64,000 bases of DNA, taken from contig OZ365110.1 of the NCBI GenBank assembly GCA_977030845.1, positions 41,974,001 to 42,038,000 on the forward strand, given 5' to 3'. The number at the start of each line of letters is the position of its first letter. The stretch's first letter is position 1. Below are positions 18,001 to 21,000 of this stretch, piece by piece. The position numbers were made by a program. The DNA comes from Fimbriosthenelais zetlandica. Lineage: Eukaryota.

Positions 18001-21000
18001 GGAAAACTGGGCAGAGTTAGGACATAAAAGCCAAGCTTTAAATAAGGTTAGGCCACCACAAAGTACAGTGTGCCAGCTTGTTTGTACAGGAAGAGGAGCA
18101 ATAATGAAGGAATATACTTTTTACTGGGAATGTCTAAAGGCATGGTATTAATACTGGTGTATCGCCAGTTGATTAAGGACAGATTGATTATACTGGAGTT
18201 GTTGATACTGAATGATGCTTACACAATGACTGCCAGAGACCACATTAAGTATTTGCAATTATTTGTGTGTTTCAAACACTATCACGTCATTTCATAATCC
18301 CCCTAATCCCTTTTCTATCAGTTGTATAATATAGAAGCAAAACTGGAGGCAGCAATTTTCTTACAAAATTCATGATTTACAGGAAATTTTTCTAATAAAT
18401 TAGAAATTGGAAAGAATCAAGAATTTGGTCATAAGTAACGAACAGAGCAGCTGTTTCTGTTATCTTCTAGACTATTTCATTAATTTCTGTCGGAACTGCA
18501 TAGGTAAATAGCATTTGCAAATGTGTATAATTTCTTATTATAGTTAATCTGTCATTTGATCTGTCAGCCTGAATAACTACAGAATAATTTTCTAAGATGA
18601 TATAACAATGAAGATAGACATAACAAGCTTGTAATTTGGGAAGGCACGCGAAAGATCTGGTTTGGCAAGTTTAGGTGACAAGAAAACAATACGCATGCCT
18701 ATCAGTATTTGTATACGTATACATTTCTAAATTCATTACCTTTACAATTCAAAGAACAATGAACTTATACATGTAGATATACATAATTATTCAGCTACCA
18801 CTTCTAATTTGGAGTAATAAAGGGTAATAAAACCAGCCTGCCCTGGGCAATTCAAACATATCTATGGACATTCATTTTCTTTATAATTAATTATATCCCT
18901 GATTATAGCCCAACATAATACAGACTAGCGACCTTTTAGGTGGGTTACGTCAGGCACATGGCTATTGATCTCCTAGCATGGCAAATGTGGATTGGCAACT
19001 TAGTGGTTGATGATCCCGACCGGTGCCAATACGACGCGCATCCCCTAACCTTCAACAATGCATACATGTAACCCCCAGCACCCTGCTCATGTAACCCTGT
19101 CTATGTAGATAACAGCATGATGTAACTGACTTAATCAACAACACTATCAACCTATCACTTTTCCCTTGCCATAAAAATGTGACCTAATCCTTGTGTCTTT
19201 ATATATGTACGCTGCTGCAGACCTGACGCTGCAACACAATGATGAATGAGTCACGTAACACATTGTGATTCTCTACCAGAATAATGTTCTTCCTACTATG
19301 CTGGTAATCATTCCAGATATCCATGGCAGACAGATATGTAGCAGCTTCCATGGATGTCTAATTTATCGTCTTTCCAAGTTTACAATACACTACATCTGGA
19401 GATGTTTTCTTGTACATGTATAGAGGAGCAAGATAATCCAAATCATCTGCATCTCTCAGCACATCCTTTGATTACACTTGTTTTCCTTTCAACAGGTGGT
19501 GGGTGGGCTTTCATTGCAGGTGGTTGCAGTGTCAGTTACACAGTCCGTGGTAGGCTATTGAAGCATTACCCTCAAGAATCTTGGCCAATATATCTTCCTA
19601 TTCAAGCTTCCTTATAATAGATTAATTTTTGAAGGGGCAGCTGGAGAGGCTGAGAAGAGTTAGTTCAGAATGATGTTTTGCGTGTCCAACATAAGGTCAA
19701 AATAGTTCCACTTGATAGAATATGCGCAAAAAATACTGTCTTATCATGGTCCTCCTTGTGCATCAATCTGGCGAACTCGAGCATAAAAATTCTCTCAGAT
19801 GTCTTCCCTAGAGAAAAGCTGGACTTGGGCAGAAAAAGAGAGGACATGGCATGAGGGGTTCAAGATCTTTGGTTGTGCTGTGGCCTGTCCAATGGTAAAG
19901 ACAGGAACAGGGGGGGTGGCCTTCCAAGCCCTATTAGTTCCATCTGTTATCCCTCCAATGTTGAAATGGAGAGTCACTGATAAGGCATTTAGGGATGAGG
20001 AAGACTCACCAAGTGATAGGTTTACTTTCATTCTTTTGTACAAGTATCAATATTCATCATCTGTTTGTGTACATTCTGCCAACATATTCATATATCGCCT
20101 GTTTGGAATGTAGAGCTGTTGATGCTGTAACTTGACTTTAGGTTAACTTGATGTCCATTTGTTAAGCCTGGTCCATGACACTAGCTTGTTTTTTTTCAGC
20201 TATGGTTCACAAGAAGCACGGCTGGACACAGTACAGCAATGATAAACACTATAACAGCACTGCTGACACTCTCGGTTTTAAAACACTAGCTCCTGACACA
20301 TAGAGCTTTCCAACACTTATTTCATTATTCACTGAACATATACAATGTCTTTGATTATTGCAGCAACCAAATCATCGACATGTAACACTGATTAAGGCCA
20401 ATAATCCCTTTAACAGGATCTGACGGACACTGGCATCGCTGATGTCACATTGCGGCCTTGCATGTATGTGACACCTAACAAATTCCATGGTGACCAGCAA
20501 GCGATTGCAAAGCCACCAGACTTGACTAGGGTGTGTGTGTGTGTAAATTCATCAAGAGTAAACACCACTTTCATTCAAGTGGACATAGTTGGGGGCAGTG
20601 ATTTAGATCAACCCGTCACATTTTTTGGTGACTGAGGAGTTTCCCCATGTTGATCAATACATACGTGGTCCATGTGGGGCCCCACTTTTGCTGGTCAGCA
20701 TGGGAGCAGGGGACCTGTTTGGTGGTGGGCCAATAGCAACCAACGTAGGATGCTGAATGACCTGCGCCATAGGATGAGCTTGTATCAACTGATGTGCTGG
20801 TATCATCGGATGATGACCTTGTGGATGATGACCTTGTGGATGATGACCTTGTGGATGATGACCTTGTGAATGATGACCTTGTAAATGATGACCTTGAGCC
20901 ATCGGATGTGCTTGCACAACATGCCCTGTTTGAGTGATCTGTGCATGTTGTGGGCCACCATAAGCGCCACTTGTGTATACAGCCCCACCATATACAGCCC

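Follow-up and report, generated by a model that had tools for sequence, protein, structure and literature searches.

The 64,000-nucleotide (nt) stretch analysed here (64 kb, the window), positions 41,974,001 to 42,038,000 of contig OZ365110.1 in the Fimbriosthenelais zetlandica assembly GCA_977030845.1, carries on its minus strand an SH3-SH2-tyrosine-kinase gene, recognized by tblastn with Src homologues and by Pfam matches for each exon. Judged by its sequence, the gene encodes a tyrosine kinase of the Src family (Src64B-like) and has two last exons that are mutually exclusive, a proximal exon A and a distal exon B. The TAG stop codon of exon B is followed directly by CTAG and by 142 further sense codons in the kinase frame (the extension). 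The extension is probably translated in this frame. For stop-codon readthrough as the route by which ribosomes would enter it, we consider the case to be evenly balanced. The full reading, in which a conserved programmed UAG-CUAG readthrough on one of two Src-family last exons, in an animal apparently outside the insects, would append a 142-residue Gly/Tyr-rich and His-rich sequence behind the autoinhibitory tyrosine, is put forward as a tentative one.

Evidence for coding constraint in the extension

The extension, which runs LVGPAGMPASRVGC...GAPHGPRMY (Table 1), is unusually long for the window, where only 5 of 7,270 stop-to-stop intervals reach at least 142 codons. It contains 23 Gly, 21 His, 18 Pro, 15 Gln and 14 Ala residues and no Asp, Glu, Phe or Trp. 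Pfam holds no family for it, nor for the 172-residue overlapping frame described below, and tblastn found no second copy in the window. It contains three repeat families, with periods of 15, 18 and 15 nt, each of which is a multiple of three. The Gly/Tyr-rich stretch contains a 12-nt direct repeat at 15-nt spacing. Its glycine codons are used interchangeably, as had been pointed out in an initial annotation made from the sequence alone: GGG, GGA, GGT and GGC occur three, two, two and two times, respectively. Another family is a 15-nt minisatellite with the units GHHLQ, GHHSQ, GHHPQ (three times) and GHHPM. It lies within the open reading frame (ORF), its period is a multiple of three and it is absent from the two relatives of the extension in the alignments, as is characteristic of a coding minisatellite. 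Two copies of the heptapeptide QAHPMAQ belong to a degenerate H-x-x-x-Q-[A/G] array with 15- and 18-nt periods; Tandem Repeats Finder (TRF) reports a period of 18 at 20768-20813.

The two QAHPMAQ copies carry a signature of constraint at the protein level. Copy 1 reads CAA GCA CAT CCG ATG GCT CAA and copy 2 reads CAA GCT CAT CCT ATG GCG CAG, the latter ending at 20762, 2 nt beyond the bound of 20764 given initially. They differ at four of 21 bases (6, 12, 18 and 21). All four differences are at third positions and synonymous in the kinase frame, as originally stated. In either of the other frames each of the four would change an amino acid, so that the replacements expected in the competing open frame are borne out. 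That frame was described as 20616..21044 and in fact spans 20616..21134, or 172 codons. The initial annotation put the chance of such a pattern at ~1%; this figure was conservative, because an exact enumeration of all 484,785 placements of four substitutions in copy 1 gives 171 that are wholly synonymous (3.5e-4). The corresponding counts in the other two frames are 243 and 1,811. The copies had also been described as flanking the His repeat on both sides. This is accurate for copy 1, which abuts the repeat, whereas MIPAHQLI lies between the repeat and copy 2, and the arrangement is not symmetric.

Wider 33-nt units (HVVQAHPMAQG and QLIQAHPMAQV) were also compared because the boundaries of the shorter copies had been picked by peptide identity. 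Of their 11 differences, two, one and eight fall at codon positions 1, 2 and 3, respectively (binomial P = 0.0088). A scan of the window in six frames for identical seven-residue peptides within 600 nt of each other returned 27 pairs, 26 of which differ at 0 or 1 base; the QAHPMAQ pair is the only one with two or more base differences.

The extension has relatives among known proteins. A HMMER search with its 142 residues against 1.84 billion representative proteins gave six matches with E values up to 0.001. Two of these, P0037 (98 residues, E = 7.7e-38) and P0038 (81 residues, E = 2.2e-17), both start with MPASR, at a position equivalent to Met 7 of the extension, and both end with ...HGPRMY. 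They are shorter by 38 and 55 codons than the 136 residues from Met 7 onwards found here, and have the same ends nonetheless. Identity to the extension is 78 of 98 aligned residues for P0037 and 62 of 80 for P0038. The tblastn matches of both (E = 6e-46 and 7e-28) lie exclusively at 21064..20657 in the kinase frame, and not in the 172-codon overlapping frame. The latter, on the minus strand at 20616-21134, is rich in Ser, Thr, Trp and Cys and spans the kinase stop codon; its first Met start lies close to its end. Two other genomes, of different divergence, have thus kept the ORF together with its frame and its stop codon. Frame-breaking indels had been proposed as a refutation of protein-level selection; none is present, and every indel relative to P0037 and P0038 keeps the frame. 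Since the called ORFs of the relatives have their start at Met 7, and none of them reaches back into a kinase exon, a stop codon just upstream is probably kept in the relatives too.

Conservation varies along the extension. The 20 mismatches of P0037 over 98 positions all lie outside the last 27 (0.796^27, or ~0.002 by a hand calculation), and P0038 has six replacements and one single-codon gap in this C-terminal block. In the other four HMMER matches (P0039-P0042) the similarity is confined to the His/Gln repeat, and these are repeat proteins with no relation to the extension. When alignment A1 was used as a profile against proteins of 44-249 residues, P0037 and P0038 were again the sole matches. 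Look-alikes in a protein atlas (bacterial, VrrB-like; score 0.82, below the lead level of 0.9) resemble the extension at the level of composition only.

Triplet periodicity of base composition provides a further line of evidence. For the extension minus the His repeat the chi-squared value is 29.8, which was reached by 0 of 4,000 intron or intergenic windows; taken separately, the N-terminal part gives P = 0.00125 and the C-terminal part P = 0.0155. Three of five real exons pass the same test. The protein-level selection proposed initially is supported by the two relatives, their tblastn placement and this periodicity. The coding signature of the in-frame ORF past the stop codon is carried by the synonymous duplicates, the periodicity and the relatives, while the codon-usage and conservativeness tests described below are neutral.

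The stop codon of exon B and the proposed readthrough

The TAG of exon B stands at the canonical terminus of the family: the exon B protein ends six residues past the regulatory Tyr, and 33 of 35 Src homologues end 4-7 residues past it. The codon before the TAG is GTA. CTAG directly follows only 14 of the 7,276 stop trinucleotides in the window (0.19%), and the TAGCTAG 7-mer is not enriched there (six found compared with 5.08 expected). In the passages of Loughran (2014; PMC4132726) cited here, CUAG directly after a stop codon is a readthrough motif that drives readthrough of four vertebrate genes in human cells, and the readthrough of OPRL1 is lowered ~3-fold, but not abolished, when UAG replaces UGA. 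The leaky-stop context is thus present in the sequence at exon B, with the function of the motif taken from that work. A G+C-rich hairpin (21056-21074, minus strand) with a 7-bp stem formed by GCCGGC...GCCGGC lies ~11 nt past the stop codon and encloses the first ATG of the extension; it is no more stable than shuffled sequence (50 nt, z = -0.25).

The position of the TAG at the family terminus, the continuity of frame, the onset of conservation within 18 nt of the stop codon and the CTAG together make readthrough the most economical route into the extension. A fraction of ribosomes would decode the exon B UAG by means of a near-cognate transfer RNA (tRNA) and then translate the next 142 codons. 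In the resulting kinase isoform, the autoinhibitory C-terminal tail would be followed by an extension in three parts: a Gly/Tyr-rich segment, a fast-evolving His/Gln/Pro-rich array that includes the young 15-nt minisatellite and the two QAHPMAQ units, and a conserved C-terminal block of 27 residues. This low-complexity sequence may be disordered, as its composition suggests, and might alter the regulation or localization of the kinase. Long readthrough extensions in Drosophila are described as highly disordered and enriched in low-complexity regions (cited passages of PMC4999894), a description that fits the composition of the extension given above.

On the sense strand there is no AATAAA or ATTAAA for 4,090 nt past the TAG (16995-21085), compared with ~6 per 4 kb in the rest of the window; the first AATAAA past the exon B stop codon is at 16995. 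This suggests that exon B transcripts have a 3' untranslated region (3'UTR) of ~4 kb, and the extension should consequently lie inside the transcript. In exon A an ATTAAA occurs 183 nt past the stop codon. A short (GT)n/(CA)n microsatellite is located at 20531-20546, in the presumed 3'UTR of exon B and ~110 nt past the stop codon of the extension.

Alternative explanations

Several observations weigh against a translated extension reached by readthrough. For RNA segments of 50 and 200 nt after the stop codon the fold is no better than that of shuffled sequences (z = -0.25 and -0.56, respectively), and for 100 nt it is marginal (z = -1.99). Codon usage, scored as a log-likelihood learned from 560 codon triplets in the gene's tblastn match blocks (a few of them extending past exon ends), gives -27.2 bits for the kinase frame compared with +9.9 and -27.0 bits for frames +1 and +2. 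His is encoded by CAT in 21 of 21 cases in the extension, compared with CAC seven times and CAT four times in the kinase exons, and the third-position G+C content is 0.33 compared with 0.53 in the exons. About five frames are fairly open in this region, including the overlapping 172-codon ORF on the same strand. Both variant bases in the His minisatellite (TTA/TCA/CCA, giving L/S/P) are non-synonymous in the kinase frame. The replacements relative to P0037 and P0038 are not significantly conservative compared with random single-base changes (BLOSUM; P = 0.12 and 0.19). The small in-frame indels are all within triplet runs (CATCAT, CCACCACCA or GCT-type), and the 15/18-nt repeats hold the large ones, so the keeping of the frame is partly automatic through slippage. 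That the relatives start at Met is equally expected of an independent ORF. No kinase-plus-extension protein of at least 378 residues was found, in a word-indexed search that scored 0 of 253 candidates and counts as weak evidence. Finally, abundant readthrough is reported for Pancrustacea only (cited passages of PMC5100048), and the kinase exons here show no greater closeness to insect sequences than to those of a chelicerate, brachiopod, echinoderm or hemichordate.

A separate 136-residue protein (MPASRVGC...GPRMY), initiated at an AUG of its own (21064-21062), whether on a separate transcript or from a downstream ORF within the kinase messenger RNA, would account for all of the coding evidence equally well, with the shared kinase frame a coincidence. 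P0037 and P0038 are recorded as stand-alone proteins starting at Met 7, the AUG has a purine at -3 (ggcATGc), and the missing fused protein fits. These Met starts are not evidence of initiation, because ORF callers begin at the first Met by construction. The AUG lies 18 nt past the stop codon of a kinase ORF of at least ~500 codons, and reinitiation after a long ORF is generally inefficient. Continuity of frame (a one-in-three chance) and the CTAG after the stop codon (0.19%) are also left unexplained, and we regard initiation at this AUG as unlikely.

It is similarly unlikely that the region is untranslated, that is, conserved repeat-rich 3'UTR DNA in which the ORF was kept through close kinship and triplet repeats and the QAHPMAQ pattern is chance noticed afterwards. 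The number of open frames, a codon usage without preference for the kinase frame, the non-synonymous variants of the His repeat, the non-significant conservativeness test and the indels in triplet runs would all be in keeping with this. P0037 requires at least 23 base changes over 98 codons, for which the probability of an ORF left open by chance is estimated at a few tenths. In addition, a 16-nt inverted repeat of 94% complementarity links positions 20688-20703 in the conserved block to 20485-20500 in the UTR downstream, so some of the conservation could reflect a role of the RNA itself. This inverted repeat pairs the PMLTSK codons with the 3'UTR 187 nt downstream, and the stem is present in both the minimum-energy and the centroid folds; the fold that contains it is marginal (z = -1.61, with 12 of 200 shuffles folding as well). 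An untranslated region would have to produce four synonymous differences out of four by chance (3.5e-4), with nothing comparable in 64 kb and six frames, a periodicity outside the repeats that beats 4,000 of 4,000 null windows, and the same start, frame and stop codon in two relatives that differ in divergence. When the CTAG context and the length of the ORF are added, the joint chance is very small.

Splicing could in principle remove the TAG if the donor at 45455, which is in phase 1, were joined to an AG within TAGCTAGTAG; acceptors at 21079/21078 or 21076/21075 (a slash marks the splice junction) would enter the extension in frame. The phase of the upstream exon (CCAG/gtgagt) is suitable, since the AGs past the stop codon give G+TA or G+GG in this frame, and CTAGTAG resembles a tandem NAGNAG acceptor. 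By a hand count there are only eight pyrimidines in the 20 nt before these AGs, compared with 16 in the 20 nt that precede the actual acceptor of exon B, and the product would be without the last ~72 residues of the kinase domain. The conservation in the relatives from Met 7, 18 nt past the stop codon, leaves no room for an intron in the start of the extension. Splicing of this kind is improbable.

The same extended protein would result if adenosine-to-inosine editing turned the amber UAG into UIG, which is read as Trp. UAG is the triplet favoured by ADAR enzymes, and in the minimum-energy folds the stop region (GUAUAGCU) is paired with GGCUGUAU ~85 nt downstream. The known precedent is the amber/W site of the hepatitis delta antigen, which needs double-stranded RNA around the UAG and at which a C-terminal extension is added past the UAG that ends the ORF. 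Unlike that site, the stop codon here is not enclosed by a statistically supported double-stranded structure: none of ten inverted-repeat pairs within 1.2 kb on each side is a long one that covers it (0/10), and the folds show no significant gain over shuffled sequences (z = -0.56 over 200 nt). Editing is accordingly very improbable. The least probable explanation is one long ORF interrupted by an assembly error, a polymorphism or a nonsense mutation of recent origin, which the single assembly would allow but which is at odds with the position of the stop codon where 33 of 35 homologues end (4-7 residues past the Tyr) and with the ORFs of the relatives, which start at Met 7 rather than in the kinase exon and so imply a stop codon there too.

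The Src-type kinase gene and its two last exons

The gene was read exon by exon, from matches to individual exons, and the bounds of the shared exons are approximate (Table 1). The domain order SH3_1, SH2, PK_Tyr_Ser-Thr followed by a C-terminal regulatory Tyr, as found by Pfam for each exon, is that of the Src family. Identity of the kinase to 35 homologues is 31-78% per exon with no clearly nearest taxon, and 43-69% to one primate protein, so the contig is not considered human. The last shared exon, which ends at 45455, is in phase 1 with a CCAG/gtgagt donor. Exons A and B both start in phase 1, each with a good pyrimidine tract before it, and cover the same part of the Pfam kinase profile (~205-256 of 258); the acceptor of exon B is ...tttctactttcag/GT. 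The EGSY of exon B and the EPSY of exon A align with the STEPxY motif of the homologues. These tandem last exons lie ~12 kb apart, have approximately half of their residues in common (by eye) and possess their own regulatory Tyr and their own stop codon each. The exon A product runs G/MTGNEVLQRLEQGFRMPRP...STEPSYRERF and ends at a TGA, with a second in-frame stop codon five codons further on, and so has no extension.

Alternative duplicated C-terminal exons are known from the sponge genes srk1 and srk4. A metaclust record (P0002) contains two last-exon segments fused in tandem, and its C-terminus is identical to that of a Lingula anatina protein (P0008), which suggests that the duplication of the last exon is not unique to this genome. 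The tandem arrangement of kinase-end and regulatory-Tyr exon copies is thus shared with invertebrate Src genes of this type. Unlike in those genes, only the distal copy here has a stop-CTAG context and a long open extension. The whole 64-kb window, which has ~40% G+C and no N, gave no Rfam match and no tRNA in the Rfam and tRNA scans.

Table 1. Features of the Src-type kinase gene and of the extension in the window, with the basis on which each was placed.
Feature	Position	Strand	Basis
SH3 exons	59572-59486, 58978-58904	minus	tblastn, Pfam SH3_1
SH2 exons	58293-58195, 58017-57841	minus	tblastn, Pfam SH2
Linker exon	~57525-57376	minus	tblastn match
Kinase exons	57078-56809, 56445-56284, 45592-45455	minus	tblastn, Pfam PK_Tyr_Ser-Thr
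Shared upstream exons as a whole	45455..59572	minus	tblastn, Pfam, splice-site contexts
Exon A, proximal alternative last exon	32968..33182	minus	tblastn; Pfam PK_Tyr_Ser-Thr, profile 208-256 of 258
Exon B, distal alternative last exon	21083..21303	minus	Pfam PK_Tyr_Ser-Thr, profile 205-255 of 258; tblastn with Src homologues
TAG stop codon and CTAG	TAG 21085-21083, CTAG 21082-21079	minus	sequence
Putative C-terminal extension, 142 sense codons and TGA (20656-20654)	20654..21082	minus	kinase-frame ORF
First ATG of the extension, Met 7	21062..21064	minus	start of both database relatives
Gly/Tyr-rich stretch GQYGGVYGAVYGGAVYTSGAYGGPQ, residues 21-45 of the extension	20948..21022	minus	alignment A1; nearly invariant in P0037 and P0038
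QAHPMAQ copy 1	20894..20914	minus	sequence
15-nt coding minisatellite, six units	20804..20893	minus	TRF period 15, 5.9 copies, 97% matches at 20808-20896
QAHPMAQ copy 2	20762..20782	minus	part of 18-nt-period array HPMIPA / HQLIQA / HPMAQ
Conserved C-terminal block AIGPPPNRSPAPMLTSKSGAPHGPRMY, residues 116-142 of the extension	20657..20737	minus	27/27 identical in P0037

Relation to known systems and implications

Src-family kinases are kept inactive by a short C-terminal tail, behind which the extension would be placed. By mechanism, exon B would belong to the class of stop-CUAG readthrough genes. As described in the cited passages of PMC4132726, the vertebrate genes AQP4, OPRL1, OPRK1 and MAPK10 likewise have a stop codon directly followed by CUAG; in AQP4 the last sense codon is GUA, as it is here, and OPRK1, OPRL1 and AQP4 have a conserved in-frame extension in which conservation is strongest near the C-terminus. 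The stop codon is UAG in exon B whereas it is UGA in those genes, and the 142 codons of the extension are many compared with 13 in MAPK10 and typically 28 in AQP4. The present case also differs from the vertebrate ones in its host, a Src-type kinase of a non-vertebrate that is known here from sequence alone, and in its location on an alternative last exon.

A long, low-complexity and presumably disordered extension with a coding signature is a feature shared with the readthrough genes of Drosophila and Anopheles, as far as these are described in the cited passages of Jungreis (2016; PMC5100048) and Pancsa (2016; PMC4999894). The coding signature there comes from codon alignments of many genomes, whereas here it is formed by an internal duplicate and two relatives at the protein level. 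Abundant readthrough has been described for Pancrustacea only (PMC5100048), and among the sequences compared the kinase exons here are not closest to insects. In the main-text literature we found no report of readthrough in a Src-type kinase, although supplementary candidate lists may name one, and no paper with both 'stop codon readthrough' and 'Src64B'.

The QAHPMAQ pair illustrates that an internal duplicate can expose coding constraint without a genome alignment. Exon B readthrough would, if confirmed outside Pancrustacea, be a well-defined addition to the small number of conserved readthrough genes known there. To alter the autoinhibitory switch of a Src kinase through an isoform that is longer by 142 residues would be unusual. 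Should the reading be correct, the efficiency of termination and the choice of last exon would together set the ratio of the normal kinase to an altered one, in which the clamp between SH2 and the C-terminal tail, the localization or the clustering of the protein may be changed.

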